Below, in pieces: positions 2,660 to 55,100 of a DNA stretch of 64,000 bases (position 1 is its first letter; every line of letters starts with the position of its first letter). A program made the translations under genes and the position numbers. Source of the stretch: Squalus acanthias (Eukaryota); the NCBI GenBank assembly GCA_030390025.1, contig CM059432.1, positions 89,716,001 through 89,780,000 on the forward strand, given 5' to 3'. A model generated the notes under the pieces. That model searched no databases. It was not told where the DNA came from and worked only from the letters and a program-made list of their open reading frames with translations.

Positions 2660-3274
2660 CATCAGGAACATTTGACTCATAAACAAAGCAGTGAATTGGA
2701 AGCTTTAGAGTCAGTGATGAAAGTACATTTATAAAACTTTAGTCATCTGGGAGAGTCATATTTCCACAGTTTGCCATGTAATCAGTCAGAATACTTGTAA
2801 TATTTACCCAATAGACACAACGCCCTAGTTTCTAAAAATACACTTGACTGTTCTTCTACCTGTATTGAGGCACTTTCTGACGGTAGTAGTGCATTTATGG
2901 CCTGGTGTGTTCTATGTGACGTTGCAGTAAGAAAAACTGAGATGGTAAGAGAAGTTTTTCTTTGATTACGACACTTGCTGATTTTAAAAAGCACTTGTGT
3001 GTGTGTGAAATTCAAGCTGACATGGCTTACTGATGAAAAAATTGCCTTTGGGGCCAAGATGGTTTGGTGAATTTAATATTTAACTCCTGCTTAAGGGATT
3101 TTCTATGGTAGGCATCATTTTGGGAGTGGGATGAGAAGCAGCTTAAGTAACATAATAGCAAGTGCCAAAGTACTCCCAGTGAATTAAAATAAACTAAATC
3201 AATAAATAAACTTCAATATAGAACAGGCCTTGGAGATCCGTAGTATCCTGGTTGTCTACCGCCCACTCAAGTAC

Positions 3275-12010: not shown

Positions 12011-14268
12011 ACATAGAAACATAGAAACATAGAAGATAGGAGCAGGAGTAGGCCATTCGGCCCCTCGAGCCTGCTCCGCCATTCAATGCGATCATGGCTG
12101 ATCATCCAAATTCAGTACCCTGTCCCTGCTTTCTCCCTATATCCCTTGATCCCCTTAGCATTAAGAAATATATCTAACTCCTTCTTGAATATATTTAATG
12201 AATTGGCCTCAACTGCCTTCTGTGGTAGAGAATTCCACAGGTTCACCACTCTCTGGGTGAAGAAATTCCTCCTCATCTTAGTCCTAAATGGCTTACCCCT
12301 TATCCTTAGACTGTGACCCCTGGTTCTGGACTCCCCCGCCATCGGGAACATCCTTCCTGCATCTAGTCTGTCTAGTCCTGTTAGAATTTTATAAGTTTCA
12401 ATGAGATCACCTCTCATTCTTCTAAACTCGAGCGAATATAAGCCTAATCGACCCAATCTCTCTTCATACGTCATTCCTGCCATCCCAGGTATCAGTCTGG
12501 TGAATCTTCGCTGCACTCCCTCCATGGCAAGTACATCGTTCCTCAGATAAGGCGACCAAAACTGCACACAATACTCAAGGTGTGGTCTCACCAAGGCCCT
12601 GTACAACTGCAGCAAGACATCCTTGCTCCTGTACTCGAATCCTCTCGCTATGAAGGCCAACATACCATTTGCCTTCTTAACCGCCTGCTGCACCTGCATG
12701 CTTACCTTCAGCGACTGGTGCACAAGGACACCCAGGTCTCGTTGCACTTCCCCTTTTCCCAATCTCTTGCCGTTCAGATAATAATCTGTCTTCCTGTTTT
12801 TGCCACCAAAGTGGATAACCTCGCATTTATCCACATTATAGTGCATCTGCCATGCATCTACCCAATCACCCAACCTGTCCAAATCATACTGGAGTTTCTC
12901 TGCATCCTCCTCACAGCACACACGCCCACCCAGCTTTGTGTTGTCTGCAAACTTAGAGATATTACATCTAGTTCCCTCATCTAGATCATTAATATATATT
13001 GTGAATAGCTGGGGTCCTAGCACCGATCCCTGCGGTACCACACTAGTCACTGCCTGCCACTCGGAAAAAGACCCGTTTATTCCAACTCTTTGCTTCCTGT
13101 CTGCCAACCAGTTCTCTATCCAAGTCAGTACCTTACCCCCAATCCCATGTGCTTTAACTTTGCACGCTACTCTCTTATGCGGGACCTTATCGAAAGCCTT
13201 CTGAAAGTCCAAATACACCACATCTACTAGTTCTCCCTTCTCTATTCTACCAGTTACATCCTCAAAAAATTCCAGTAGATTAGTCAAGCATCATTTACTT
13301 TTTGTAAATCCATGTTGACTTTGTCCGATCCTGTCACTGTTTTCCAAGTGCTCTGCTATTACATCTTTTATAATGGACTCTAGCATTTTCCCCACTACCG
13401 ATATCAGGCTTACCGGTCTATAATTCCCCGTTTTCTCTCTACCACCTTTTTTAAATACTGGAGTTACATTAGCTACCCTCCAATCCATGGGAACTGTTCC
13501 AGAGTCTGTAGAATTTTGGAAGATGACCAGCAATGCATCTACTATTTCTAGGGCCACTTCCTTAAGTACCCTAGGATGTATATTATCAGGCCCTGGGGAT
13601 TTATCGGCCTTCAATTCAGTCAACTTCCCTAACACCATTTCCCTACAAATACTGATTTCATTCAGTTCCTCCCTCTCATTAGACCCTATGTTCCCCGACA
13701 TCTCTGGGAGGTTATTTGTGTCCTCCTTTGTGAAGACAGAACCAAAGTATGTATTTAATTGGTCAGCCATTTCTTTGTTCCCCATTATAAATTCCCCTGA
13801 TTCTGACTGCAAGGGACCTACGCTTGACTTCACCAATCTTTTTCTCTTCACATATCTATAGAAGCTTTTACAGTCAGTTTTAATGTTCCCTGCAAGCTTA
13901 CTCTCATATTATATTTTCCCCCTCTTAATTAATCCCTTTGTCCTCCTTTGCTGAATCCTAAACTGCTCCCAATCCTCAGGTTTGCTGCTTTTTCTGGCCA
14001 ATTTATATGTCCTCTCCTTGGATCTTATGCTATCCCTAATTTCCCTTGTTAGCCATGGTTGAGTCACCTTTTTTGTTTTATTTTTATGCCAAACAGGGAT
14101 GAACAAATTCTGTAGTTCATCCATGCGATGTTGAAATGTTTGCCATTAACGCTTTAAGTAACGTTCCGCAATCCATCCTAGCCAACTCGCGCCTCATACC
14201 ATCGTAGTTTCCTTTATTTATATTCAGTTGCCTAGTCTCTGAGTCAACTACTTCACTCTCCATCTTAA
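12011..14268 (-). mobile_element. CR1 family A copy, 5'-truncated, inserted in H1
   Basis: RT ORF 12112-13287 open for 391 aa, continued by 13291-13851 and 13909-14124. (CATAGAAA)n tail at 12011-12035. Confidence 0.95.
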
Positions 14269-16665: not shown

Positions 16666-16757
16666 TTTTTTTTCATTTATGTATTCACGGAATGTGGGTG
16701 TTGCTGGCAAGGCCAGCATTTATTGGCCAGCCCTAATTGCCCTTGAGAAGGTAGTGG
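16666..16757 (-). mobile_element. Family B 3'-tail fragment
   Basis: Reverse complement of CTTCTCAAGGGCAATTAGGG..AATAAATGCTGGCCTTGCCAGC. Confidence 0.8.
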
Positions 16758-24861: not shown

Positions 24862-25001
24862 TACTGCAGGAGTACCTTCACATCATGGATTGCAGAGGTT
24901 CAAGAAGGCAGCTCACCACCACCTTCTCAAGGACAATTAGGGATGGGCAATTAATGCTGGCTTTGCCAGTGACGCCCACATCCCATGAACGAATAAAAAA
25001 A
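24862..25001 (+). mobile_element. Family B 3'-tail fragment
   Basis: GGTTCAAGAAGGCAGCTCACCACCACCTTCTCAAGG...CCCACATCCCATGAACGAATA(n). Confidence 0.88.
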
Positions 25002-26074
25002 AGATCTGTTTAAACGAAGCTGTGCTTCAACAAAGCTCTGGATGAGCTTTGTCTTCTGCTGCAGCCTGACCTGTAAACCACCTCTTCCAATAGGGCAGCA
25101 CTTGCTATCCCTGTAAAGGTAATTCTTTTTCCTCCAAGTTCTTTTCAGGGTGCTACAGGAACTTTTACCAAATTAAGTCACTATGCTGACATTGCTGCAT
25201 ACGTCAGGTGACATGCTTTGTACCACTCACTACTCCTGTTCCTGTGTTCCAATGCTCCTTTTCTCTATGCCCAACCATCTCTTTAAATCTCTCTCTCCTT
25301 CCCCTCCACCCTAACTTCTAAGAACAACTGCAAGAAACTCATGGATTTCTTTGTCACCAAGATAGGGACTATCTGTTCAGCTACTTCCCCCCCACCCCAC
25401 CCCCCCCAGCCCTCCTCTTGCTCACCCTGGTTCCCCAGTTCCTCTCCTACCCTAGTCCTGAACCACTGCCTCTCTGTAGTTTCACCCACATCTCCCACCC
25501 TAACCCTAACCCACCCTATCCAATTTCATCTCATCCATGGGACCTACCTCCTGTTCTCCAGATCCCATTCCCATTAAACTACTGACAACCCCACTTTCCT
25601 TTCTGGCTTGCTTGCTAGCTGACATACTGTTCTCTCCTCCCTTTCAAAACTGCAGTCATCACCCTACCCTCAACCCGTCTGTCCCCACTAACTACCACCC
25701 AAACTCGACCCTCTCATTCCCCTCAAAGATCCTTGAATGTGCCATAATTTCCCAGGTCTAGGCCCACTCTCCCACAACTCCCTGTTTGAATCAGTCCAAT
25801 CAGATTTCTGCCCCTCCCGCTGCACCAAAATGGGCCTACCCAAAGGCACAAATGACATTGTGATTGTGTCCTGGGTGCATTATCCCTCTTCATGCTCTCT
25901 GAATGCTTCGACACAGTTGATCATACCATCCTCCTCCAATGACTCTCCTCCGTTGTCTCGCTTGATGGGATTGCCTTCAATTAGTTCCACTCTTACCGCA
26001 TCATTCATAGCCATAGCATCTCTAGCAATGCCTCCCTCCTCCATCTCATTTACATGCTGTCCCTTGGCAATATT

Positions 26075-27449
26075 GGCCAATCCGGCCAATTACCGCTCCA
26101 TCAGTCTACTCTCAATCATCAGCAAAGTGATGGAAGATGACGTCGACAGTGCTATCAAGCGCCACTTACTCACAAATAACTTGCTCACCGATGCCCAGTT
26201 TGGGTTCTGCTAGGACCACTCAGCTCCAGACCTCATTCCAGCCTTGGTCCAAACATGGACAAAAGAGCTGAATTCCAGAGGTGAGGTGAGGTGAGAGTGA
26301 CTGCCCTTGACATCAAGGCAGCATTTAACTGAGTGTGGCATCAAGGAGCCCCAGTAAAATTGAAGTCAATGGGAATCAGGGGGCAAACTCTCCACTGGCT
26401 GGAGTCATACCTAGCACAAAAGAAGATGGTTGTGGTTGTTGGAGGCCAATCATCTCAGCCCCAGGATATCGCTGCAGGAGTTCCTCAGGGCAGTGTCCTA
26501 AGCCCAACCATCCTCAGCTGCTTCATCGATGACCTTCCCTCCAAATAAAGTCAGAAGTGGGGATGTTCGCTGATGACTGCACAGTATTCAGTGCCATTCG
26601 CAGCTCCTCAGATAATGAAGCATGTCCATGCCCGCATGCAGCAAGACCTGGGCGACATTCAGACTTGGGCTGATAAGTGGCAAGTATATTTTGGGCCGCA
26701 CAAGTGTCAGGCAATGACTATCTCCAACAAGCGAGAGTCTAACCACCGTCCCTTGACATTCAACGGAATTCCCATCGCCGAATCCCCCACCATCAGCATC
26801 CTGGGGGTCACCATTGACCAGAAACTTAACTGAACCAGCCAGATAAATACTGTGACTAAAAGAGCAGGTCAGAGGCTGGGTATTCTGTGGTGAGTGTTTC
26901 ACCGCCTGACTCCCCAAAGCCACCATCTACAAGGCACAAGTCAGGAGTGTGTTGGAATACTCTCCACTTGCCTGGATGAGTGCAGTTCCAACAACACTCA
27001 AGAAACTCGACACCATCTAGGACAAAGCAGCCCGCTTAATTGGCACCCCATCCACCACCTTAAACATTCACTCCCTCCACTACCATGGTTGCAGTGTGTA
27101 CTATCTACAAGATGCACTGCAGCAACTCGCCAAGGCTCCTTCGACAGCACCTCCCAAACCCGCGACCTCTACCACCTAGAAGGACAAGGGCAGCAAGTGT
27201 ATGGGAACACCATCACCTCCAAGTTCCCCTCCAAGTCACACACCATCCTGACTTGGAATTATATCGCTGATCCTTCATTGTCGCTGGGTCAAAATCCTGG
27301 AATTCCCTCCCTAACAGCACTATGGGAGTACCTTCACCACAGGGACTGCAGCGGTTCAAGAATGCGGCTCACCACCACCTTCTCATGGGATGGGCAATAA
27401 ATGCTGGCCTTGCCAGTGACGCCCACATCCCAGGAATGAATATAAAAAA
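26075..27449 (+). mobile_element. LINE family B, 5'-truncated copy
   Basis: NPANYRSISLLS, GVPQGSVL and MFADD motifs with the family B tail. Confidence 0.92.
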
Positions 27450-27560
27450 TATCATCTGTTGACATGGACTCAGCTGCCGTATGTGCGCTGATGACATGCA
27501 TCTTTACTTCTCCACCACCTCTCTCAACACCTCCACTGCTTCTGTGTTATCAGACATTTA

Positions 27561-30648: not shown

Positions 30649-31642
30649 GTTACATGAACAGTCATCTGAGGGGAGCTAACTAGAGAGGAAGAGCTCACAC
30701 GTTCTGCCATCAGAGTGAGAACAGCATCATGGTTACAGACTGCAGCTGTGCTACTTGAACTGGACCCTGGTCAGTGGGAGGGTGACAGTTTCATCCTGCA
30801 AAACTCCCAAAACTGTCAGAAGCCACTTACTATCATTCTCTTCAACTGGTCTCACAAGGTCTAAAGCCAGTAGTCAATATTGGATCCATATTGGAGGCAT
30901 TGACTGGTTTAGAGGCCTTCCTATTAGGGGAGATTGCAGTAGAGGCTTTTGGAGCATCCTCTGAAAAGCTCCTCAATCCCTGCAGATCCAGCATCCTTCT
31001 TTTCAGAGCAGGACCCTGAAATCTTCAGCCAGGGATTGACATCTGCTGAGCCTCAGCTCAGCACCATCAGATTGCACTTTCATTCCTGACCTCTCTGCCA
31101 CTGTCACCCTCTGCGTCTCGCCCACTGACAACACCGCATCAGCTATCACAGAAAGCCTCACCATTTCAATCTCTCTGGGTTGGTGACTGCAAGAAAAGGG
31201 ATGAATGACAGCATGAGTGAGGTTGTGGTGCCATGACGTGAGGCTGTGGGACTTTGCCCATTTTCTTCCCCCTGTTCAGCAGCATCTTGCTATTTTTTAT
31301 CGAGGAAAAGAAGACGAGGAAAAGTTCGAATATTTAGCATCTAAAGGAGCACCAATAGGTTCTTTACAAAGATGTCTGTGCTCCCACACAATAAGGTAAA
31401 GAAGCAACAGATGGCACAGACAATCCACCTGCTGCCACTGCCGGAAATCAAGGCGATTATCAGAAAGTAATTGGGGGCCAGACTGGAAATAAAGAAGGCT
31501 ACTATAAGGGCTATCCCTCCATTGGGGGAACTCAGGGCTGTTACCGCCACGGAGAGGGTTGATGAAGGTAGTGCGGTTGATGTTGTGTATATGGACTATC
31601 AAAAGGTGTTTACGTAAAAGGTTATTACGCAAGATAAGGGAA

Positions 31643-31730
31643 TGGTAGCATAGTGGTTATGTTACTAGACTAGTAATCCAGAGGCCTGGACTAATGATCC
31701 AGAGACTGTGAGTTCAAATCCCACCACGGC
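31643..31730 (+). promoter_or_regulatory. tRNA-derived Pol III internal promoter (A box 31646-31656, B box 31710-31721)
   Basis: TAGCATAGTGG; anticodon-like arm CTAGA-CTAGTAA-TCCAG; T-arm GTGAG-TTCAAAT-CCCAC. Confidence 0.8.
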
Positions 31731-32016
31731 AGCTGGGGAATTTAAATTCAAAAATAAAAATCTAGTAAAAACTATCAGATTGTCATAAAAACCTATCTGG
31801 TTCACTAATGTCCTTTAGGAGAAGGAAATCTGCTGTCCTTACCTTACCTGGTCTGGCATATATGTAACTCCAGACCCACAGCAATGTGGTTGACTCTTAA
31901 CTGCCCTCTGAAATGGCCCAGCAAGCCACTCAGTTGTAACAAACTGCTATGAAAAGCAATAATAAGAATAAAACCAGACGGACCACCTGGCATCGATCTA
32001 GGCACCAGCTTCGGAC

Positions 32017-34170
32017 ATGAAAACAACCCAGCCCAGTCGACCCTGCAAAGTCCTCCTCACTAGCATCTGGGGACTTGTGCCACAATTGGGAGAGCTGTCC
32101 CACAGACGAGTCAAGCAACAGCCTGACATAGTCATACTCACAGAATCATACCGTTCAGCCAATGACCCAGATTCCTCCATCACCATTCCTGGGTATGTCC
32201 TGTCCCACCGGCAGGACAAACCCACCAGGGTTGGCAGCACAGTCGTATACAGTCGGGAGGGAGTGGCCCTGGGCATCCTCAACATTGACTCCGGACCCTA
32301 TGAAGTCTCATGGCTTCAGGTCAAGCATGGGCAAGGAAACCACATGCTGATTGCCAGCTGATGAATCAGAACACCACTTGGAAGAAGCACTGAGGGTAGC
32401 AAGGGTGGGGGACTTCAATGTCCCCTTCAATCACCAAGAGTGGTTCAGTAGCACCACAGCGGGCCAAGTCCTGAAGGACATAGCTGCCAGACTGGGCCTA
32501 CGACAGGTGGTGAGAGAACCAACACGAGGGGAAAAACCTACTTGACCTCGTCCTCACCAATCTACCTGTCGAAGATGCATCTGTCTATGACAGCATTGAT
32601 AGCAGTAACCACCACACAGTCCTTGTGGAGATGAAGTCCCGTCTTAACACTGAGGAGGACACCCTCTATCGTGTTGTGTGGCACTACCACCGTGCTAAAT
32701 GGGATAGAATCAGAACAGACCTAGCAGCTCAAAATTGGGCATCTATGAGGCACTGTGGGACATCAGCAGCAGCAGAATTGTATTCCACCACAATCTGTAA
32801 CCTCATGGCCCGCCATATCCCTCACTCTACCATTACCATCAAGCCAGGGGACCAACCCTGGCTCAATGAGGAGTGCAGGAGCAGCACCAGGTACCTAAAA
32901 ATGAGGTACCAACCTGGGGAAGCTGCAGCACAGGACGACATGCAGAAGCAGCATGCTATAGACAGGGCTAAGCGATCCCACAATCAACGGATCAGATCAA
33001 AGCTCTGCAGTCCTGCCACATCCAGTCGTGAATGGTGGTGGACAATTAAACAACTAACGGGAGGAGGAGGCTCCATGAATATCCCCATCCTCAATGATGA
33101 CGGAGCCCAGCCGCGAGTGCAAAAGACAAGGCTGAAGCATTTGCAACCATCTTCAACCAGAAGTGCTGAGTGAATGGTTCATATCGGCCTCCTCCTGAAG
33201 TCCCCACCATCACAGAAGCCAGTCTTCAGCCAATTCGATTAATTCCACATGTTATCAAGAAACGGCTGAGTGCACTGAATACAGCAAAGGCTGTGGGCCC
33301 CGACAACATCCTGGCTGTCGTGCTGAAGACTTGAGCTCCAGAACTAGCCGCGCCTCTAGCCAAGCTGTTCCAGTACAGCTACAGCACTGGCATCAACCCG
33401 ACAATGTGGAAAACTGCCCAGGTATGTCCTGTCCACAAAAAGCAGGACAAATCCAATCCGGCCAATTACCGCCCCATCATTCCACTCTCAATTATCAGCA
33501 AAGTGATGGAAGATGTTGTCGACAGTGCTATCAAGCAGCACTTACTCAGCAACAACCTTCTAACCTTCTTATCGATGCTTAGTTTGGGTTCCGCCAGGAC
33601 CACTCAGCTCCAGACCTCAGTACAGCCTTGGTCCAAACATGGACAAAAGAGCTGAATTCCAGAGGTGAGGTGAGAGTGACTGCCCTTGACATCAAGGCAG
33701 CATTTGACCGAGTGTAGCATCTGCGGCGAGTGTCTCACCTCCTCACTCCCCAAAGCCTTTCCACCATCTACAAGGCACAAGTCAGGAGTGTGATGGAATA
33801 CTCTCCACTTGCCTGGATGATTGCAGCTCCAACAACACTCAAAAAGCTCGACCCCATCCAGGACAAAGCAGCCCGCTTGATTGGCACTTCATCCACCATC
33901 TTAAACATTCACTCCCTACACCACTGGTGCACCGTGGCTGCAGTGTGTACCATCTACAAGACGCACTGCAGGAACTCACCTGCAAGTTCCCATCCAAGCT
34001 ACACATCATCCTGACTTGGAAATATATCGCCGTCACTTCATCGTCGCTGGGTCAAAATCCTGGGACTCCCTCCCTAACAGCACTGTGCGAGTACCTTCAC
34101 CACACGGACTGCAGCGGTTCAAGAAGGCGGCTCACCACCACCTTCTCAAGGGCAATTAGAGATGGGCAAT
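32017..34170 (+). pseudogene. APE endonuclease-reverse transcriptase ORF of family B, disrupted
   Basis: APE motifs LTSIWGL, PDIVILTES, GDFNV, LDLVLTN and SNHHTV, then RT motifs ANYRPI and LDIKAAFD. Confidence 0.88.
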
Positions 34171-34663
34171 AATTACTGGTCTTGCCAGCAACGCCCACAT
34201 CCCATGAACAAATAAAAAAAAGAGTTCATGGGGTTGGGGGTAATATATTAGCATGGATAGAGGATTGGTTAATACACAGAAAAAAGAGAGTAGGGATAAA
34301 TGGTTCATTTTCAGGTTGGCAGGCTGTAACTAGTGGGGTGCCGCAAGGATCAGTGCTTGGGCCTCAGCTATTTACAATCTATATTAATGACTTAGATGAA
34401 GGGAACGAGCGTAATGTATCCAAATTTTCTGACGATACAAAGCTAGGTGGGAAAGTAAGCTGTGAGGAGGACACAAAGAGCCTGCAAAGAAATATAGACA
34501 GGTTAAGTGAGTGGGCAATAATGTGGCAGATGGAGTATAATGTGGAGAAATATGAGGTTATTCACTTTGGTAGGAAGAATAGGAAAACAGAATATTTTTT
34601 AAATGGTGAGAAATTATTAAGTGTTGTTCAGAGAGATTTAGGTATACTCATACAAGAAACAGA

Positions 34664-37600
34664 GGGCTAAAAATTCGGGGCCTTAACTCTACCTGTTACC
34701 GGCAAAAAGTTGCATTCAGAGAGCAACCGCTGATGTTTCACCAGCTGGTGGCGGGTCTCGCAATGTCCTCCATTTTCCCAGGCCCGACAGCGCTGCCAGG
34801 AAGATCCATCACCCTGCAAATTAAAATGAGGGAGAGATGATGTCAGTCGGCTTGCAACTCAGTTCAGCGCTGGGTCCTAAGCTCGCCATGTAAACCTAGT
34901 GTGCAGCAGACGGACAGAGGCACTGTCAGCACTTCTTAAAGAGACACACACTTATTTCAGGTAAGTTTGCATTTAAGCTTTTAGTCTGGGTTTTTTTTTA
35001 TTTTATTGAAGTAGTGGCATGCTGCAATACATGTTAAAAGTATTTTTAGTGTGTAGGGAGTGCTGCTGGATGCTTGCAAGGCCTCAGATGGGAAAGGAAA
35101 GCCTCTGAGAAGTCATAAAATGCTGCAAATACTCAGCAGGTCAGCAACATCTGTGGAGAGAGAAACAGAGTTCACATCTCAGGTCAAGATGCTGCCTGAG
35201 CTGCTGAGTATCTCCAGCATTTTATGCTGTCATTTCATATTTGCAGATTCCGCTCGCAGAGGGAAGAGGAAGAGACTGAAGAGGAAGAAACAGAAGAGGA
35301 AGAAGCCGAAGAGGAGGAAACAGAAGAGGAGGAAGCAGAAGGAAGAATGCAACCCAGACAGCCCCTTTCTGGCCGGGATATCCGGGATGGAATCATCTGC
35401 CTGCAGTACCAGTGACCAAACCCCAATTCCCCTTTCAACATTTTTCCCACACCTTACCTTCCCTCTGTTACTGACCATCACAGTGTCCTCTTGGCCACAA
35501 GGCTGAAATAAAAGACACCACAAAGCAAACTTTCCAATCCAACTTTATACATCTATCCATCCAATATGTCATCAAGAAATCAACTCATCACCCTTATGCA
35601 TTCTCTTAGTGACTGTCTTGTGTGTGCCTTTGCCTATCCTACTGAAGTCACGCAGTGCTACCGCAGTGGCTGCAGCATGGCTGGTGGAAGGCTGCTGGCT
35701 TTCAGTGGGGGACACTGCAAATGGCCTTGCTGGTTGACCTTGAGGAGCTGGTGGCTGGGAGTGTCAAATTGAGTGATGGTTCTTCTTCCTCTTCTTGACT
35801 CTCCTCTCCCTCTTCTTGGCCAACCACTGGCTGGGTAGGCTGCATTTCTTGGGTGTGTGAAATGAGGAAGGCACAAGGGTGGAGTTGTGGTGAGGGGAGG
35901 GCAGAAAAGCAAGAGGTACATGCGAGAAGGAGGATAACATATGAGGATACCAGCATCTTGTACCCTTTCTGCCTCACCGCTGGCCAAGGGCTCAGCCATG
36001 CCCCTGCCAAGAATGGCCAGCACCGTCTCCTCCAAGGGGCTGAGGTGAGGCTAGGAATGGGAGATGTGCCTCGTGATTGATACAGGTTATTGGTAGGTGA
36101 GTGATGGGGGGGAGTCAGCATTGAGCAGTGTGTGAGGCTCGTGATGCAGTTGGTAGAAGATGGATTTTGAAGATGCATTCACTGACCTAGACCAGTGGTC
36201 TGAGGTCATGAAGCTTCTTTGGGCACTGGAGCCAGATGGTGGGGGCGACACTGCTGGCAGTGACGACCTCGGTGATGTGGTCCCACATCGTTCTTTCTGG
36301 AGGGCCTCCTGGCCCCTGTGGGTAGAGGACCTCTCTTGCAGTGTTGACCCGCTGCACAAAGCTGGAGTGCTGCATGTGAGACCCTGGGTGCCCCTTCCCT
36401 GGCTTGCTGAGCCATTTGCATTAGTGTTGAAGCAGTTTTCCCATTTTTCGAGGTTCGGAAGGGAATTCACTGGAATCCACTGGAATTTTTTGAGGATGTA
36501 ACTGGTAGAATAGATAAGGGAGAACCAGTGGATGTGGTGTATTTGGACTTTCAGAAGGCTTTCGATAAGGTCCCGCATAAGCGATTAGCGTGCAAAGTTA
36601 AAGCACACGGGATTGGGGGTAAGGTACTGTCTTGGATAGAGAACTGGTTGGCAGACAGGAAGCAAAGAGTTGGAATGAACAGGTCTTTTTCCGAGTGGCA
36701 GGCAGTGACTAGTGGGGTACCACAGGGATCGGTGCTAGGACCCCAGCTATTCACAATATATATAAATGATCTACATGAGGGAACTAGATGTAATATCTCC
36801 AAGTTTGCAGATGACACAAAGCTGGGTGGGTGTGTGTGCTGTGAGGAGGATGCAGAGAAACTCCAGTATGATTTGTACAGGTTGGGCAGATGCATGGCAA
36901 ATGTCATATAATGTGGATAAATGCGAGGTTATCCACTTTGGTGGCAAAAACAGGAAGACAGATTATTATCTGAATGGCAATAGATTTGGAAAAGTGGAAG
37001 TGCAATGAGACCTGGGTGTCCTTGTGCACCAGTCGCTGAAGGTAAGCATGCAGGTGCAGCAGGCAGTTAAGAAGGCAAATGGTATGTTGGCCTTCATAGC
37101 GAGAGGATTCGAGTACAGGAGCAAGGATGTCTTGCTGCAGTTGTACAGGGCCTTGGTGAGACCACACCTTGAGTATTGTGTGCAGTTTTGGTCACCTTAT
37201 CTGAGGAAGGATGTTCTCGCCATGGAGAGAGTGCAGCGAAGATTCACCAGACTGATACCTGGGATGGCAGGAATGATGTATGAGTAGAGATTGGGTCGAT
37301 TAGGCTTATATTCGCTAGAGTTTAGAAGAATGAGAGGGGATCTCATTGAAACTTATAAAATTCTAACAGGACTAGACAGACTAGATGCAGGAAGGATGTT
37401 CCCGATGGCGGGGGAGTCCAGAACCAGGGGTCACAGTCTAAGGATAAGGGGTAAGCCATTTAGGACTGAGATGAGGAGGAATTGGTGAACCTGTGGAATT
37501 CTCTACCACAGAGGCCAATTCATTAAATATATTCAAGAAGGAGTTAGATATATTTCTTAAGGCTAAAGGGATCAAGGGATATGGGGAGAAAGCAGGGGCA

Positions 37601-38108
37601 GGGTACTGAATTTGGGTGATCAGCCATGATCCCATTAAATGGCGGAGCAGGCTCGAGGGGCCGAATGCCCTACTCCTGCTCCTATCTTCTATGTTCAGCT
37701 TTAAGAGCTGAAGACTCCCATTTGGAACTTCTTTTTAATGTTAATTTTTTTTTAAAGGCAGTAAGGGCTGAAAACTACATCTTTTCACTTCATAGTTATT
37801 TTTATTAGTTCTGAAGGCATTGCCCTTTTAATGCATTGCCCTTTTACTTTCCCACAATGCCTAGCAAACTCTTGCCTGGCTTCCAGAGGCTGTTCGAAGC
37901 TGGAACGCCACTTCTGGACGGCAATTTCGACTCCCATGCCTGCACTAACGCCACCAGGAGGGTGTTACATAGTAAGTTAGCGCTGGGTAAAAGTCTTTAG
38001 CTCCCAGAGCGAATTTTTCTCTGGCAGTACTTCGTCCATTTTCAGCAGCCGTTAACCCGAGGCCACAGTGACACCGGCAACTCTCATGGTGGCCACAAAC
38101 TTTTCCCC
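34664..38108. mobile_element. Non-autonomous Harbinger family H1, copy 2
   Basis: TIR GGGCTAAAAATTCG / CAAACTTTTCCCC and TSD AGA inside CR1-D. Collinear with 11624-16366. Confidence 0.88.
36474..37693 (+). mobile_element. CR1 family A copy inserted in H1 copy 2
   Basis: Near-identical to 485-1742 and absent at the matching site (~15945) of H1 copy 1. Confidence 0.95.
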
Positions 38109-39339
38109 AGAGAGTTAGCTTGCAGGTACAACAAGCAATTAGGAAGGCAAATGCATGTTGGCCTTTATTGCAAGGGGGTTGGAGTACAAGAGTAAGGAAG
38201 TCTTGCTACAATTGTACAGGGCTTTGGTGAGACCACACCTGGAGTACTGTGCAAAGTTTTGGTCCCCTTATAGGATATACTTGCGTTAGAGGTGGTGCAA
38301 CGAAGATTCACTAGATTGATTCCTGGGTTGAGAGGGTTGTCCTATGAGGAGAGATTGAGTAGATTGGGCTATATTCTCTGGAGTTTAGGAGAATCAGAGG
38401 TGATCTCATTCAAACATGCAAGATTCTGAGGGCGATTGCCAGGATAGATGCTGAGAGATTGTTTCCCCTGGCTGGAGAGTCTAGAACTAGGGGGCATAGT
38501 CTCAGGATAAGGGGTCGGCCTTTTAAGACTGAGGTGAGGAGGAATTTCTTTACTCAGAGGGTTGTGAATCTTTGGAATTCTCTGCCCCAGAGGGCTGTGG
38601 ATGCTGAGTCGTTGAGTATATTCAAGGTTGAGATAGATAGGTTTTTGGACTCTAGGGGAATCAAGGGATATGGAGATCGGGTGGGAAAGTGGAGTTGAGG
38701 TCGAAGATCAGCCATGATCTTATTGAATCATGGAGCAGGCTCGAGGGGCCATATGGCCTACTTCTGCTCCAAATTCTTATGTTCTTATATGTTCTTATGT
38801 TTGATAAAATGCCACATAAACGAATTGTTAGCAAAATTAAAGCCCATGGGATTACAGCAGCCTGGATACAATATTGGCTGAGAGACAGAAAGCAGAGACT
38901 AGTGGTGAAAGGTTGTTTATCAGACTAGAGGGGAGTGTACAGTAGTGTCCCCCAGGAGTTGATATTAGGACTCCTGCTCTTTTTGATATATATTAATGAC
39001 CTGGACTTGGGTATAGGTGGCATAATTTCAAAGTTTGCAGAAGACACAAAACTTGTAAATGTAGTAAACCATGAGGAGATAGTAGCAGACTTCAGGAGGA
39101 CATGGACAGACTGGTGAAATGGGCAGACACATGGTAGATGAAATTTAATGCAGAGAAGTGTGAAGTGATGCATTTTGAAGGAAGAACGAGGAGAGGCAAT
39201 ATAAACTATATGGTAACATTTTAAAGGGATTGCAGGAACCGAGATATTTGGGTTCATTTACACAAATCTTTGAGGTTGGCAGGACAAGTGGCAAAGGCTG
39301 TTAAAAAGCATACGGAATCATGGGCTTCATAAATAAAGG

Positions 39340-39550
39340 TCATGATGCGGAGATGCCGGTGTTGGACTGGGGTGGACAAAATTGAGAGGTCGCACAACAC
39401 CAGGTTATAGTCCAACAGTTTTATTTGAAATCACAAGCTTTCGGAGCTATCGATTTGCTCCTTCCTCAGGTGAAGTGTCGATAGCTCCGAAAGCTTGTGA
39501 TTTCAAATAAAACTGTTGGACTATAACCTGGTGTTGTGCGACCTCTCAAT
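39340..39550. mobile_element. Short Penelope-like pLTR insertion (family P2) forming a perfect hairpin
   Basis: Identical 75-bp inverted arms 39379-39453 / 39478-39552. 14-bp TSD TTCATAAATAAAGG (39326-39339, 39551-39564). Confidence 0.8.
39431..39473 (-). ncRNA. Minimal type I hammerhead ribozyme motif
   Basis: TCAC-CTGAGGA-A-GGAGC-aaatcgata-GCTCC-GAAA-G-CTT-GTGA: intact core, stems I and II, palindromic stem III AAGCTT. Confidence 0.8.
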
Positions 39551-41020
39551 TTCATAAATAAAGGCATAGAGAACAAAAGTAAGGAAGTTATACGAAACAT
39601 TTATAATTAACTGGTTAGGCCTCAGCTGAAGTATTGTGTCCAATTCTGGGCACCACACTTTAGGAAGTATGCCGAGGTCTTGGAGAGTTTCTGATGAGAT
39701 TTACTAGAATTATACCAGAGATGAGGGAGAGACTAGAGAAGCTGGGCTTGTTCTCCTAGAGCAAAGAAGATTAAAGGGAGATTTAATAGAGATGTTCTAA
39801 ATTATGGCAGATTTTGATAGCGTAAATAAGGAGAAATTGTTTCCACTGGCAGAAGGGTCGATAACCAGAAGACACAGATTTAAAGTAATTGGCAAAAGAA
39901 CCAGCAGGGATATGAGGAGAATTTTTTATGCAGCGAGTTGTGATGATTTGGTATTCACTGCCTGAAAGGGTGGTGGAAGCAGATTCAATAGTAACTTTCA
40001 AAAGGGAATTGGATATATATTTGAAAAGGAAAATTTTGCAGGGCTATGGGGAAAGAGCAGGTGAGTGGGACTAATTGGATAGCTCTTTCAAAGAGCCAAC
40101 ACAGGCACAATGGGCTGAATGGCCTGCTTCTGTGCTGTATGATTCTATGATTCCCTATGACTTCTCGGGACCTGCCAACATGGTCCCAGGAAGCGGTGAT
40201 AAAATCCAGTGGGGCACCACGCCGCACCCCCTATTACATGTGATGGGCAGGGAAGGAGTGGCTAGCAACTGTCCCACTAGAGAGGGGGAAAATTCCAAGT
40301 AGGAATGATGAGGCAGTGGTAGGCCTCATTCTTCACCACTATCGTAGCCTATTTTGGGCAGGATCACAGAGGAGAATCCAGACCTAGATCTTAAAAGTAA
40401 GTTTTCAGTTGTCAGATCTATCTTCGGCTAGAAGAGGTCAATATCAATTGAATCTGACACTTCATACTCCAAGATTCATTTGGACAGGTGTCCATAAATC
40501 AACACATATTTGCTATATATAAAAAGATCTAAAATTAAAAATGGCATTATGTTAACAGAAGCAGATAACCTGATAGTAACATCAATTAATATGGAAAGAA
40601 AACAAATTCAAGATAATAGTGTGACATGTTGTCAACTCCAGAAGTGGCAATCAAGATGTATATTAAAAAGAAATTTCATTGAAGATTCACGGCAATATTC
40701 TTTTTGCTAATTCTTAAAATATGCTGATGTATATGCAGTGAAGCTTCCTGTAGTATCCATGTTCTCCAAATTTAATTGGTTATTCCCATTAAAGGAAGTA
40801 TTTCCAAAGAGAAATTTCTATTCACGGCTACATCATTCCATTTAAAGACAAGCCCAATATAAATTTACCTTTGTCTTCCAAAACAATGGGCAGCTAGCAT
40901 TTTCTGTAAGCAACAGTATCTTGCATTGAACACACACCAAGATTATCCATATATAATATAAAAACAGAAAATGCTGGAGACACTCAGCAGGTCAGGCAGC
41001 ATCTGTGAAGAGAGAAACAG

Positions 41021-42529: not shown

Positions 42530-44570
42530 AGCAACACCTTTGATTTGGAGGAAATGAGTGGATTATCCATATGTTTAGTACCATTTTAAATAATCTAGAA
42601 TCAATTTGGGCTGTTCTCTCAAAATATATATACATATATATATATATTACATGTGTTGCCTGAGAAGTAAGGGTGTAACATTTCTAAATTGGTACCTTTT
42701 TCATTGTCCCTGCAAAAATCAATGTACTAGGGAATGTGCTTTCTTAATTTCTCAGATGACCACACAGGCATCTTCCCATCTCCTCCAAGCACTCTCCTGT
42801 CTAATTCCTTCTTGTTGCTTTCCTTCTGTATCTATTTCACTGAACTGCTTTTAACACTTTTCATCAAAATTTATGTTCAGATTTTCCTTGTCCTGACTGC
42901 TCTTCTCAGCCCCCAAAACAAATCATGGCAAAAATAAGAGGAACAGTATCAATATATGCCATAATTTTGTTGCTTTTTTAACTGATTTTATGGCTGACTG
43001 AAAATTAGTCAGCAATGGAATGTGAATTTTAATGGGTGGTCTTTTACATGACTTGTTTTTTTCTAACGTACCCAGGGGAAGCTATCTATGGGTACAATTT
43101 GTATCAAAACAATCCAATCTGTAGCTCTTCCTGTTGCCAGTTTCACATTGCTTTCCATCTAACCCAGATGTCACTTTTCCTAGACCTAATCACGCTGGCC
43201 CTGAAATCCACAGGGATTCCACTAATGTCCCATCAGAACTCCAGCTAGTCACCAGTGGAACCCACCAGAAAACAGAAGGGACCCGCTTGTGCTAGGAGTC
43301 CACTGTTTCCATGAGTTTCTGACATGCCTCATAACAGGTGGAACTGCACCCCCCCACCCCACTACTTATAAGGCAAATGTCATGGAGGGGGTGGGGGCGG
43401 CAGAGACTCTCTACAGCAAGTATTGCCACATCTCCGGCTCAATTAGGGCCCAGTGTATCTCTGGAGGCCAGTACACTGAGTGAGATGAAGCATACTGACC
43501 TCCTCTGGGGAGGTCCAGGTCAGCAAGGACAGCATAGTCCCTAGAAGAAAGCGCAGAATTTTTTTCAGCCCCCTTACAAAGTGGGGCAAGAAGACATGAC
43601 TGGGGTCTGAAGGAGGAGCATAACAATCTGCTCCCCTCCAAGCGGCATGGTTGGCACCCGATTTTATAATTGCACGTGGCATGCAGGCACCAAAGACAAG
43701 CCCATAGTGGTGCTTGCGCACGCCTGTTGCATGCAAGTTATGTGCCCCCCTTCTGACCTCTGTCAGGTCAGCGCTGGAGAGTAGTTGGTGTGATCCCAGT
43801 ATAACTGCTGGGATCATGTTCCAAGGATTACTTGGATCACTATCTTTCTCCATAGCATCCTCTCTGTCCTTCTGCATCAGCTTACTTCCTCTTACAGCAT
43901 ATAGACTGATCGACTTCAAGCTAAAACCTTACTGCCAACCTGATCATACAACTCTCCTGATTCTACCTATTGCACCCTTCAATTATAGTTCAGCCTTCAA
44001 TTATACCATTTTCCAATATAAATATATCACAATAGGGTCACCTCAGAGAGTTTAAAGATTTGGATCAATTATCCAATTAAGTGCAACATCATATGACATT
44101 GCAACCAAATTGACAACCTTCCTCAAATATAAAAAGTCCCCCCTTATTTCTGATCTTCTCAAAATGCTGGAGATCAAATCCCATAATTAAATCTTTCACA
44201 AAGTAATAGTGAATATGTGCTCCTTTAAGATTTCACATCAGCGTTCTCAGGATCTTTTTGAGCAATACACACAGTTTTATGAGAATATGATTTTTTTTCT
44301 CAGTTCAGTTTAAATTTAATTTCAAATATGTGGTTATTTAGGACACCGTACAAGTGCAGGGCAATATGTGGAACAAGGTTTCTCCCTTTACTTTGGTTCC
44401 TCATCCTAGAGAAATAATTCACTTCAAAAACATTAATCCTTGTGCTCTCATGTGCGTTCTAATTTTCATAAGATTTTCTTTCACAGATTTTTTTTCATTG
44501 TTTACGGGGCTATTGGGGGATTGTCAGTCATTTTATGTGAAAATTGCCATTGTGAAGTAAATAGCTGTCC

Positions 44571-46877
44571 AGGCCTGCGGCAGGAGGTGAGAGAACCAAC
44601 AAGAGGGAAAAATCTACTTGACCTCGTCCTCATCAATCTACCTATCACAGATGCATCTGTCCATGACAGCATTGGTAGTAATGACCACCGCACAGTCCTT
44701 GTGGAGACGAAGTCCCGTCTTCAACTGAGGACACCCTCCATCGTGTTGTGTGGCACTACCACCGTGCTAAATGGGATAGATTCAGAACTCAAAACTGGGC
44801 ATCCATGAAGCGCTGTGGGCCATCAGAATTGTATTCCACCACAATCTGTAACCTCATATCCCTCACTCTACCATTACCATCAAGCCAGGGGACCAACCCT
44901 GGTTCAATGAGGAGTGCAGAAGAGCATGCCAGGAGCAGCACCAGCGTAACTAAAAAATGAGGTGCCAACCTGGGAAAGCTGCAACACAGGACTACATACA
45001 TGCTAAACAGCAGAAGAAGCATGCTATAGACAGGGCTAAGCGATCCCACAATCAACGGATCAGATCAAAGCTCCGCAGTCCTGCTACATCCAGTCATGGA
45101 TGGTGGTGGACAATTAAACAACTAATGGGAGGAGGAGGCTTCATGAATATCCCCATCCTCAATGATGGTGGAGCCCAGCACGTGAGTGCAAAAGACAAGG
45201 GTGAAGTGTTTGTACCCATCTTCAGCCAGAAGTGCTGAGTGGATGATCCATATCGGCCTCCTCCTGAGGTCCCCACCATCACAGAAGCCAGTCTTCAGCC
45301 AAATCGATTCACTCCATGTGATATCAAGAAACGGCTGAGCGCACTGGATACAGCAAAGGCTATGGGCCCCGAAAACATCCTGGTTGTCGTGCTGAAGACT
45401 TGTGCTCCAGAACTAGCCGTGCCTCTAGCCAAGCTGTTCCAGTACAGCTACAACACAGGCATCTACCGGACAATGTGGAAAACTGCCCAGGTATGTCCTG
45501 TCCACAAAAAGCAGCACAAATCCAGTCTGGCCAATTACGGCCCCATCAGTCTACTCTCAATCATCAGCAAAGTGATGGAAGGTGTCATCGACAGTGCTAT
45601 CAAGCGGCACTTAATCACCAATAATCTGCATACCGATGCTCAGTTTGGATTCCGCCAGGACTGCTCAGCTCCAGACCTCATTACAGCCTTGGTCCAAATA
45701 TGGACAAAAGAGCTGAATTCCAGAGGTGAGGTGAGAGTGACTGCCCTTGACATCAAGCCAGCATTTGACCAAGTGTGGCATCAAGGAGCCCAAGTAAAAT
45801 TGAAGTCAATGGGAATCGGGGGAAAACTCTCCATTGGCTGGAGTCATACCAAGCACAAAGGAAGATGGTTGTGGTTGTTGGAGGTCAATCATCTCAGCCT
45901 CAGGACATCGCTGCAGGAGTTCCTCAGGGCAGAGTCCTAGGCCCAACCATCTTCAGCTGCTTCATCAATGACCTTCCCTCCATCATAAGGTCAGAAGTGG
46001 GGATGTTCGCTGATGATTGCACAGTGTTTAGTTCCTTTCATAACTCCTCAGATAATGAAGCAGTCCATGCCCACATGCAGCAAGACCTGGATGACATTCA
46101 GGCTTGGCCTGATAAGTGGCAAGTAACATTCGCGCCACACAAGTGCCAGGCAATGACTATCTCCAACAAGAGAGTGTCTATCCACCGCCCCTTGACATTC
46201 AACGGCATTACCATTGCCGAATCCCCCACCATCAATATCCTGGGGGTAACCATTAACCAGAAACTTAACTGGATCAGCCACATCAATACTGTAGCAACAA
46301 GAGCAGATCAGAGGCTGGGTATTCTGCAGCGAGTGTCTCACCTCCTTACTCCCCAAAGCCTTTCTACAAGGCACAAGTAAGAAGTGTGATGGAATACTCT
46401 CCACTTGCCTGGATTAGTGCAGCTCCAACAAAACTCAAGAAGCTCGACACCATCCAAGACAAAGCAGCCCACTTGATTGGCACCTCATCCACCACCTTAA
46501 ACATTCACTCCCTCCACCATCGGCACACCATGGCTGCAGTGTGTATCATCTACAAGATACTCTGCAGCAACTCGCCAAGGCTTCTTCGACAGCAACTCCC
46601 AAACCCGTGACCTCCACCACCTCAAAGGACAAGGGCAGCAGGTGCATGGGAACACCATCACCTCCAAGTTCCCCTCCAAGTCACACACTATCCTGACTTG
46701 GAAATATATCACGGTTCCTTCATTGTGGCTGGGTCAAAATCCTGGAACTCCCTCCAACACATAGACTGCAACGGTTCAAGGAGGCGGTTCACCACCACCT
46801 TCTTAAGGGCAATTAGGATGGGCAATAACTGCTGACCTTGCTGGCGGCGCCCACATCCCATGAACGAATAAAAAAAA
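44571..46877 (+). mobile_element. LINE family B, 5'-truncated within the APE domain
   Basis: LDLVLIN and SNDHRTV motifs, full RT region and family B tail. Confidence 0.93.
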
Positions 46878-47419
46878 GGCATTAAGGTTACATTGGGTGA
46901 TAGCAACGATATTTCATACATTCTGATATAAGTTTACCGCAGTGCTGTTTTACATTTGTGGGTTGAAACAGTAACGGAGCCAAATATTCAGGGGAATGGA
47001 TGAAGGATAATTCAATTGTTTAAAGCAAGCAGCTTGTTTTGAATTTTAAAATTATATATTTAATTATTTCTGTAAATCACATTGGCACCAGGATTTTAAA
47101 AACGCTAATAAAATAAATGTTGTCGCCTGATGGGAGAGAACTTGGAATTTGTACCATCAGCTCTAACAATAGAGCTATAATAGGAAAAGGTGAGGGGTGG
47201 GCATACATGAGAAAGATAATGTGGTGAAAACCTTACTGTAAGTAAGGGGTGTATAGGCTTTTCATGGATATCTAAGCCTATAAGAATAGCACTGTATACA
47301 AAGATTCAGACATTCTGGGAAGGTATAGTTTGAGATACTTGCAAAGCTGGAAGCTGACGTAAAGGAACATCAGTACTCTAAACTGCTCTGCCTGTGGCTG
47401 TCAAAGTGAGAGCAGCCAT

Positions 47420-52111: not shown

Positions 52112-55100
52112 CTACAAATCCAGTTTAATAACAGGTTTGCGGAGCCTTCCTGACCTCCTTACAGAAGGTTTTGGTGTTGAACCAATTTTCGGGCTGTTTT
52201 GTTTTGGTTCCGCACTCAAAGATGATCCTGTTTCTATCTCAGACTTGTTTGAACCTATGGGGGAAATATTCGGTTGCTTTGCGCCTCCCGTTAGCACCCT
52301 AAGAGGGTGCTAACGGGGCACAAAGCAACTAGCGCCCGGGCGCGGCACCACCAACGTCTCCCGCAAAATTCAGCGAGAGGTTAGCGGCGGCGGTAACCGT
52401 TAGCGCCCCGCGGTGCTGCACCGGCAGCGATGATGTTGTCGCAGTACGCAGCGCCCCGCTCGCGCCCCGGCCGCGATCCTCGGTAGCGCCCCCTGACGCT
52501 ATGTCCAACAGGGTCAGGGGGGCCTACCTGCGGCTGGAGCGGCGCTAATTAAAAGCGAGGTGCCGGGTGGCCATTTTTGTTGCTGGCCACCTGCCAGCAC
52601 CTGCCCCCGTTGCCGTCCCCAGCCTCCTTACCAGCCCCCCGCGGAGTGCCGACTGCGTTCCGTGAGCCCGGCACTTCTCTTGAGTGCTGGGCTCTTTTGC
52701 CAGCTCTCCGATCCCTGGTGGCCCAGCTGGGCCCGGGTTGCGCTGTGCAAGGCCCCTCCCCTTTAAGAAGGGGAGGAAGGCTTGCAGTACTGTGGCGTGA
52801 CGTGCCGCAGCGTGTGGCGCTGCGGCACGTCGCGACGCAATATTCCCTTGCAGCGCCCCAAGAGGGAGGCGGGGCGCTTCCAGTAGCGCCTGCTTCCCTC
52901 TTGGGGTGCTGCCGATGAATTTCGGCCGTGGGGGCGCTAATTTTTTCGGGGCGCTGGCGAAGTTAGTGTCCCAAAGGGGGCGTGACTCAATTTTTCCCCC
53001 TATATGTTTCACTTCAATCCACTTTGAGTGACTATCTACAAATACCAGGAAATAATCATTTGCTTTCTCACAGAAGTTTACATGTACTCTCTGAAAAGCT
53101 CTACTTGGCCACGACCAGGGTTGTAGTGGAGTTTTGGGTGGTTTGTTTCTGCAATTTTGGCAAACACGGCATTTGCTGACAAGTGATCCAAGATCACTGT
53201 CCAATTCATGCCAGTAAACAAAGCTTCTTGCAATTGATTTCATACTGACGATCCCTGGATGTTCAGTGTGAAGTTCAGCCAGCATTCTATCTCTCAAAGA
53301 AGTAGGTACCACCACTCTGTTTCCCATTTGATATAACCTTGCTCACAATTCAGTACAATGGTTATGGAATGGTTTCAATTCTGTGTCCATACACTGCTCA
53401 GTCCATCCATTCAAGGTTTTTTCATACACTCTTTTCAGTACTGAGTCCTTGAGTCTCAGATGCAATCTCAGTTGCATTCACAGGAAAGTCTTTGTCAACT
53501 ACACCTAGCGTCAAAATAGTACCTTTACTCCCAACACAAATTCTCATGTGGCAACCTGGACAAGGCATCTGCAATTGCGTTTTGCTTTGAAGTGCGATAT
53601 TCAACCGTATAGTTGGAAGCATCACACGCTAACTTAAGCTCACGCTCTGTGTCATTGTGCACAAGTAGAGCATCGCTAGAGAGACTTCTCTTACAAGCGT
53701 CGTAAGCTTCCTGTTGCGCTTCCGTCCACTTCCACTGGACACCTTTCTTGAGGAGCTCGTGCAATGGAGTTTCAATTAAATTGGATTTGTAGTTCATTTG
53801 AAAGTAAAAAATCCAGAAGTTTTTGTTATGTGGTACATGTAATGCTGGGAAAGGTGGGACCATAGTTTGAGAGGGGAATATGTAATTTTTTTTTAAGGGG
53901 GAAAGCAGTGTAATGTATTGTCACATGGTTGAGATAACACTGCCCAATGTTGCATTCTTGATGCGGCCATTGCAAGGATGGCAGATTTGGGTTCCAATAT
54001 TGCTCGGAGCGGTTTGTGATCGGTTATCAGGGTAAACTTTCTGCTGATCAAGAACTGTTGGAATTTCTTGATTCCAAACACTATGGCAAGTGTTTCCTTT
54101 TCAATTTGCACATAGTTTCTTTTGCTCTTTGTGAAGGTTCGCGATGCGAACATGATTGGTTTCTCTTGGCCATCATCCATTACATGGCTTATGATAGCTC
54201 CCACACCGTAGCTGGAAGCATCACACGCTAACTTAAGCTCACGCTTTGTGTCGTAGTGCACCAGTAGAGCATTGCGAGAGAGAGACTTCTCTTACAAGCA
54301 TAGTAAGCTTCCTGTTGAGCTTCCATCCACTTCCACTGGACACCTTTCTTGAGGAGCTCGTGCAATGGAGCTAACATGGTCGCTAACTCAGGTAAGAAAC
54401 GTGCGTAGTACTGGACCATTCCAAGGAAAGATCTTAATTCAAACACGTTCTGTGACTTTGGAGCATTGATTACCGCATTAACCTTTTCCTTCACTGGTTG
54501 CAAGCCATTTGCATCAACTTTCAGACCAAGGTACACAACCTCAGGCTGCACAAAAGCACATTTGCTCCTTTTAAATTTGACATTGGGAGCATTCAACCTT
54601 TGAAGCACTATATCTAACACTTCTAGATTTTCTTCCTCGCTGCTTGTTGCGATCAGCACATCGTCTTGATTGCAGAAGCAATTTGGAACTCCTTGCAAAA
54701 TCTTATCCATCGTAGCCTGGAAGATTTTGGGAGAGGACTTTACACCACATTTGGCAGCTTGGTGTATGAGTACAGTCCCTTGTGTGTGTTGATGGTGAGA
54801 TACTGTTGACTCTCTGTCAACATTCAGCTGAGCGGAAGCATGCGACAGGTCAAGCTTGGAGAAAACCTTTGACCCAGAGAATGCTGCATACAAATCTTGC
54901 AATGTAGGTAACGGGTACTGCTCATCATCAACTGCTTGGTTGATAGTAACTTTGTAGTCACCGCACAAGCGTACAGTTTTGTCTGCTTTGGGCACTACCA
55001 CAATCGGGGTAGCCCATTCACTCTTGTCAGTTTTTCCTAGCACTCCATTCTCTCTGAGCTTCGCTAGCTCTTGATCCACCTGACTTTTCAACGCATAGGG

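Follow-up and report, generated by a model that had tools for sequence, protein, structure and literature searches.

By working rule, LINEs are transcribed by Pol II and SINEs by Pol III, and SINEs are non-coding (available portions of PMC10886601 and PMC5786205). The bipartite tRNA-SINEs Bov-tA, AfroSINE, SINE2_Gav and SINE2-1_ACar join a tRNA head to a LINE 5′ UTR and a LINE 3′ end, and the donors of such SINE bodies listed in the accessible part of PMC5786205 are RTE and Vingi only. The same source describes a tRNA-like sequence within an autonomous LINE for RTE-1_DAn and related elements (Kojima 2018, PMC5786205), the only precedent that we found. Pol III promoters of small-RNA genes are also carried by certain non-SINE retrotransposons, the TRIMp3 elements Cassandra, Helenus and Ajax; the available text of PMC10886601 assumes that autonomous TRIMp3 partners need Pol II, and regards Pol III as too weakly processive for autonomous elements.

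The closest described LINE is Zenon, of the CR1 group. As described in the accessible part of PMC6740152, lepidopteran Zenon and the SIDE Persaeus combine a single-ORF, poly(A)-tailed LINE with short, internally deleted derivatives, and neither Persaeus nor the 5′ end that it shares with Zenon is homologous to tRNA or holds a Pol III promoter. In the part seen of Stuart et al. (2026, PMC13343379), Zenon is described from coelacanth, hagfish and five elasmobranch species. Every element described there lacks ORF1 and ends in a poly(A) tail, a tail unique to Zenon among CR1-group elements. The elasmobranch consensuses (SquAca_Zenon-1/2/3, CarCar, ScyCan, RhiTyp and HypSab_Zenon-1) exceed 84% identity across sharks and rays and were absent from repeat libraries. 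Intact copies are given in Table S3 of the same paper as 3/612 for the ray and 1/1419 for whale shark.

A 64,000-nucleotide stretch of the Squalus acanthias genome, here called the window, contains a copy of such a LINE at 31638–34221 on the forward strand. It sits cleanly within a CR1 RT, the left and right parts of which (31552–31637 and 34222–34665, both forward) join in an unbroken frame when the insert is removed (...KRLLRKI/RVHGVGGNILAW...). An earlier sequence-only reading had recognised this block as splitting the CR1 RT and bounded it at 31639–34220; the block stands, with each end moved by one base. Apart from A residues merging with the tail, no target-site duplication (TSD) flanks the insert in the window.

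All parts of the insert lie on the forward strand. The copy is 5′-complete and opens with a tRNA-derived head (31638–31730) in which the expected tRNA-like boxes are present: the A box, TAGCATAGTGG (31646–31656), resembles that of a Pol III type-2 promoter, and the B box, GAGTTCAAATCC (31710–31721), lies with the T arm. Between them (31665–31702) stand an anticodon-like hairpin (31665–31681) and a second hairpin (31686–31702), and the acceptor stem is lost. The leader follows (31731–31939), with an in-frame AUG (31913) and a stop (31937) at its end. The remnant of a single APE-RT ORF (31940–34159) lacks a separate AUG ahead of APE motif I, and its coding remnants end at the stop at 34159; the 3′ UTR and a tail of eight A residues (34160–34221) contain a mutated form of the family's AATAAA. 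Head and APE frame are only ~300 nt apart, which, as noted earlier, leaves no room for an ORF1. Relative to 14 other copies, the window copy has nine deletions totalling 730 nt, among its losses 543 nt of the RT core after 33719, together with frameshifts and stops. Pfam returned only a weak RT match for it (E 0.016), whereas better-preserved copies bear out the assignment of APE (PF14529, E 4.5e-15) and RT (PF00078, E 3.4e-26). The window copy is dead and cannot be autonomous, as was once proposed; its family is an autonomous-type single-ORF LINE.

When the 5′ 762 nt served as query, the genome yielded 10,483 candidates, and the 40 of them that were scored showed 81–87% identity excluding the locus itself; 19 of the 20 matches extended to 8 kb continue as far as the element's 3′ part. 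Fourteen near-uninterrupted copies measure 3,120–3,311 nt (pairwise identity 91%), with a non-coding 5′ end of ~320 nt, and the family has a single ORF of ~975 codons encoding APE and RT, with no ORF1. Exact-pattern searches, whose counts are lower bounds, found at least 922 B box–leader–APE loci, at least 2,707 leader–APE loci, at least 5,969 head cores and at least 30,229 A-rich 3′ ends genome-wide, against 0 for each reversed-pattern control, so the junction is not unique to the window. For an unbiased view of the 5′ end, 20 of 40 matches were chosen by APE sequence alone, which avoids selection for the head. Ten reach the head, and ten are 5′-truncated at scattered points with no common sequence beside their junctions; no alternative 5′ UTR occurs among the 20, and the head is integral to the LINE. 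The TSD-pair test put forward with the sequence-only reading does not apply, because the copies mostly lack TSDs: a TSD of at least 4 nt was found in one of 13 copies, against a rate of 9.6% in mismatched controls, and TSDs were discarded as a marker of the unit. A unit of 3.2–3.3 kb, from head and leader through the single APE-RT ORF to the A tail, is what moves in this family.

Comparison with PMC13343379, covering the initial 400 nt of each consensus, identified this unit. By eye, the first 400 nt of SquAca_Zenon-1 (3,314 nt) are near-identical to the family, as they are to the window copy, and the published elasmobranch Zenon has the same length of 3.2–3.3 kb, single APE-RT ORF, missing ORF1 and poly(A) tail. 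Our family likewise combines a single APE-RT ORF without ORF1 with an A-rich tail, seen in its exact 3′ ends. A quick RT tree built without named Zenon references set the element far from shark CR1 (24% identity), nearest to single-ORF proteins at 36–43% identity; the Zenon placement itself follows the tree in PMC13343379. RTE, Vingi and RTEX, considered as clades, were dropped after the consensus match. On this sequence match, the family is elasmobranch Zenon, of the CR1 group. A consensus of the family, SquAca_Zenon-1, has already been published, and the absence of ORF1 stressed in the sequence-only reading is, rather than a novelty, a trait that defines Zenon in PMC13343379; neither the element nor its missing ORF1 is new. 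The words "tRNA", "promoter" and "Pol III" do not occur in the main text of that paper or its preprint, nor does "tRNA" in the portion of its supplement covered. What appears to be new is the conserved, SINE-type, promoter-like head on a published LINE family, unremarked in those parts of the source. In the openly accessible literature we came upon neither a tRNA-headed Zenon nor an autonomous LINE transcribed by Pol III.

The head is tRNA-derived but is not a tRNA gene. Rfam gave a weak tRNA match at 31645–31725 (21.9 bits, E 0.06, below the gathering score of 29) that spans model positions 7–64 only, ARAGORN called 0 tRNA genes, and a functional gene was rejected because the head forms no cloverleaf with an acceptor stem. 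Both the B-box context and the anticodon arm are found again at 284 sites of the genome where the anticodon is CTG or TTG; among the matches listed, most lie in one tandem array, and from the position of the anticodon we read these sites as putative tRNA-Gln genes. The arms and loop flanks of the hairpins are common to this array, and the head probably derives from tRNA-Gln, although the B-box context in the heads of other sharks is less Gln-like. The family thus has the tRNA-derived 5′ head with A and B boxes that marks tRNA-SINEs (SINE2), yet at 3.1–3.3 kb with an APE-RT ORF it is not the short (100–700 bp), non-coding element that the class otherwise comprises; only its deletion derivatives are. 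As to an HDV-like 5′ ribozyme of the kind found in RTE and Vingi elements, no ribozyme family is among five Rfam matches at E ≤ 10, and the fold of the 5′ 342 nt is not unusually stable (z −0.95).

All seven published elasmobranch consensuses, from five species, begin with the head when their first 400 nt are compared by eye. The A box is present in 7/7, and GTTCRAATCC is retained as the B box in 6/7, the ray consensus having lost its C. Across these seven shark and ray sequences, changes within the boxes fall on degenerate positions, whereas the rest of the head has diverged, and species differ in the bases ahead of the A box and in those separating it from the B box (by eye). Two B-box motifs searched in the covered part of the PMC13343379 supplement gave six matches, all of them elasmobranch Zenons. 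The 3′ ~150 nt of the leader are nearly invariant across the sharks and one ray and, by eye, this block is far more conserved between species than the head. Two hagfish and one coelacanth Zenon consensus have no head in their initial 400 nt, moth Zenon has a 5′ end without homology to tRNA (PMC6740152, in part), and 47 metagenomic relative loci gave no tRNA call upstream of the ORF; because all of these lack it, the head is best seen as an elasmobranch acquisition. It is either as old as the shark–ray split or has spread sideways. That split dates to ~250–300 My. Most probably, either a tRNA head was first acquired by a bipartite derivative and then returned to the LINE by way of the leader common to both, or the LINE took one up directly.

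Several features bear on the polymerase. Of 30 loci selected by their head, 24 begin at one position, 8 nt upstream of the A box. Since the head is inherited through retrotransposition, transcription would have to begin no later than the head itself, and the simplest cause of such a start would be intact, suitably spaced boxes. Runs of four T residues (T4) are also scarce: none is common to more than 2 of 15 copies and nine of the 15 have zero, against 15 A4, 10 C4 and 7 G4 runs common to at least 8 of 15. A span of 973 codons contains 0 T4, where the expectation is 3.0 (P 0.038) or 4.7 (P 0.007). For comparison, shark CR1 has 5 T4 in 404 codons, ten relatives have 7–18, and 41 metagenomic relative ORFs, from 47 loci of which six had no long ORF, have 4–33 each and no tRNA head. 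By eye, T4 occurs in the initial 400 nt of 0/7 elasmobranch versus 3/3 hagfish and coelacanth consensuses in PMC13343379.

This depletion has limits as evidence. Order-1 and order-2 Markov nulls give P values of 0.13–0.67, not significant, the leader alone gives P ~0.35, and one relative, L079, is as T4-depleted against its own null, yet keeps 10 runs. A headless shark RTE has 0 T4 in 862 codons (P 0.07, 0.04). This control is not itself tRNA-headed: of eight copies examined, five extend beyond APE on the upstream side, where they have an ordinary 5′ UTR with an AUG, and the two low-threshold ARAGORN calls in its copies are not common between copies. A unit free of internal T≥4, as Pol III transcription demands, is thus what we find in Zenon but equally in the RTE; since the headless control passes, T4 absence is necessary but not diagnostic, and it was ruled out as proof of Pol III. 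The family's 3′ UTR, moreover, carries AATAAA, as Pol II mRNAs do.

The start of translation is unusual as well. An AUG in the leader lies in the APE frame in 19 of 24 scorable copies, 39–46 codons upstream of the APE motif, but stops soon follow, TAG as codon 3 in 15/24 and TAA as codon 9 in 21/24. Except in L007, the sole copy with neither stop, the frame closes within nine codons, and no AUG freely opens the APE frame. By eye, AUG-GCC-TAG also occurs in the published consensuses of the other four species, in the APE frame in three, as far as their initial 400 nt show. A basic N-terminal stretch resembling the N-termini of relatives follows the leader AUG and stop. An out-of-frame AUG just before the APE frame was rejected as a start, being ATA in many copies. 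The arrangement of a leader uORF before an AUG-less ORF suggests reinitiation, readthrough or IRES-like entry, which would suit the needs of an uncapped RNA but is not proof of one. The headless relatives P0027 and P0078 likewise have no Met near the APE start, so this odd start may predate the head.

Deletion junctions joining leader to tail number 1,873 and fall into several recurrent, SINE-sized types that keep the 3′ ~150 nt of the leader. Among the matches listed, at least four of these derivatives have a head core 215–290 nt upstream of the junction. Their layout is that of the bipartite tRNA-SINEs (PMC5786205, in part), but there the head sits on the non-autonomous form only, whereas in shark Zenon the coding LINE itself is headed. 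Lepidopteran Zenon and Persaeus are the same in having one ORF, a poly(A) tail and short, internally deleted derivatives (PMC6740152, as available); the shark derivatives, however, are SINEs, unlike Persaeus, because they are born with A and B boxes. RTE-1_DAn differs in being an insect element of the RTE clade, and TRIMp3 elements, like Zenon in their small-RNA-gene promoters, differ in being 0.3–1.3 kb long, non-coding and of the LTR class (PMC5786205 and PMC10886601, in part).

Fixed start, box conservation, T4 absence, derivatives and the lack of an open AUG, taken together as sequence features, favour Pol III. We propose that an ORF1-less Zenon of the shark and ray lineage acquired a tRNA-derived, SINE-type head as an internal promoter. 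TFIIIC would bind both boxes and Pol III would start 8–10 nt before the A box, so that each new copy would carry its own promoter; with no T4 on the sense strand, the polymerase could read on for the full 3.3 kb. The RNA would gain or carry an A tail and be translated without a normal capped-AUG start, through reinitiation, readthrough or IRES-like entry at the conserved leader, where a tiny in-frame AUG-stop uORF stands before the AUG-less ORF, and the encoded protein would copy its own RNA by target-primed reverse transcription. A single internal deletion would then yield a ready-made tRNA-SINE, and would have done so repeatedly. That shark and ray Zenon is autonomous in this way, as a 3.3 kb Pol III RNA with a captured tRNA promoter translated without cap or own AUG, we hold at a probability of roughly 0.45; that Zenon RNA is made by Pol III and is itself translated appears about as likely as not. 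An ORF preserved between species speaks for the same RNA being translated; on the other side, an uncapped Pol III RNA of 3.3 kb is not known to be translated.

Three other accounts compete with this one. A SINE that landed by chance before a 5′-truncated LINE at the window locus would be in keeping with the abundance of SINE-sized elements bearing the same head, but the genome-wide counts of the exact junctions (922 and 2,707 loci) and the same junction in the consensuses of five species refute such a chimera, and its probability is negligible. A more serious possibility, which we nonetheless think rather doubtful, is that the LINE is driven by Pol II from its leader block or from flanking promoters, yielding capped RNA, and that the head is a passenger obtained by recombination with a bipartite SINE. 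The boxes might then persist as TFIIIC or insulator sites, through exchange with SINE derivatives, or by slow decay. The much stronger conservation between species of the leader block than of the head (PMC13343379 consensuses, initial 400 nt) agrees with this account, as do AATAAA with an A tail, the lack of T4 in a headless RTE, the general status of LINEs as Pol II products (PMC10886601, in part) and the non-tRNA 5′ UTR of moth Zenon (accessible text of PMC6740152). It leaves unexplained, however, the fixed start 8–10 nt before the A box, the confinement of box changes to degenerate positions in five species and the absence of a scannable AUG in the ORF.

Labour might instead be divided, with Pol III making a giant-SINE-like template RNA and the protein supplied in trans from capped Pol II read-through transcripts, whether of that copy or of others. 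No uncapped RNA would need translating, the enzyme does act in trans on derivatives, as the 1,873 junctions attest, and consensuses with large deletions are known (SquAca_Zenon-2, 2,886 nt; PMC13343379, in part). Retention of the ORF across sharks and rays at over 84% identity (same source) would be hard to maintain without a cis preference, though, and a capped RNA would equally lack an open in-frame AUG; we regard this account as improbable.

A coding LINE with a tRNA promoter-like head retained in both sharks and rays offers a direct test of the rule that assigns LINEs to Pol II and SINEs to Pol III. Should Pol III make the Zenon RNA and that RNA be translated, vertebrates would possess a natural mRNA that is long, uncapped and AUG-less, a Pol III-transcribed message kept across sharks and rays that gives rise to SINEs through one deletion each. 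The conserved 150-nt leader would in that case be a candidate element for cap-independent entry and might serve in Pol III expression cassettes. Even if transcription is Pol II-driven, SINEs are born here by plain deletion from a head-bearing LINE, a route lying within the CR1 group, a clade absent from the SINE-body donors listed in the available part of PMC5786205.

Two comparisons with known SINEs concern the head and the leader. SacSINE1 and CmiSINE were set aside as partners of the head on their description as Deu/CORE SINEs with L2 tails in the accessible part of PMC5499810. Leader and tail may resemble a marsupial SINE; WALLSI4, tried as this counterpart, did not match. At the 3′ end, T≥4 precedes the A tail in 4,167 of ~30,229 cases (14%), and these T runs could be a relic of Pol III oligo(U) or reflect ordinary decay of the A tail. 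Single-hairpin heads also occur among the head cores.

Zenon has given rise to derivatives of SINE size, in which the head and leader are followed directly by the last codons and the 3' UTR. At least 1,873 such loci are present in the genome, with several deletion junctions, each of them recurrent, and in some of these derivatives the head has a single hairpin and the spacing normal for a tRNA. Examples lie on one contig (G000:C1:12910768-12911120, 27084593-27084853 and 63341338-63341646) and in the flanks of loci L040 and L049; no existing name for them was found. These non-coding derivatives retain a leader block of ~150 nt (window 31788-31937) that shows almost no change between sharks and a ray and contains several hairpins, one of them GNRA-capped. 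This block may resemble a marsupial SINE.

At family 3' ends genome-wide, a T run of variable length separates the element end from the A tail. Counting by hand the first 100 of the matches listed revealed zero, one, two and three Ts in 7, 57, 15 and 8 cases, respectively, and four or more in 13. The run may be a relic of Pol III oligo(U) or else a product of A-tail decay. Sense-strand TTTT, a Pol III stop signal, is absent from the ORF of a young RTE-clade LINE family, as in Zenon. Copies of this family (2,654 candidates; L048:1-2680, minus strand, and L118-L125) are 96-97% identical, and its 5' UTR is ordinary-looking, GC-rich and tandemly repeated.

Five further copies of the same Zenon family lie within the 64-kb window, all 5'-truncated: 3273-5217, 26077-27450, 44553-46878 and 24863-25009 on the plus strand, and 16669-16757 on the minus strand. 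Copies of the CR1 RT region also occur at several places (1-1742; 12020-13764, minus strand; 36474-37693; 38114-39177); they are nested with other repeats and belong to two or more subfamilies. Palindromic elements at 39379-39552 (175 nt at 91%) and 52273-52329 (59 nt at 85%) are probably MITEs.

Pieces of the Zenon ORF, 67-79% identical, occur inside three shark RefSeq proteins (P0001, P0002 and P0003) annotated as aldo-keto reductase, storkhead-box and chitobiase, and are probably gene-model artefacts or exonised copies. Finally, two gene types, probably tRNA-Gln(CTG) and tRNA-Gln(TTG), alternate in a long tandem array with a period of ~1.2 kb (G000:C21:3337426-3411693).
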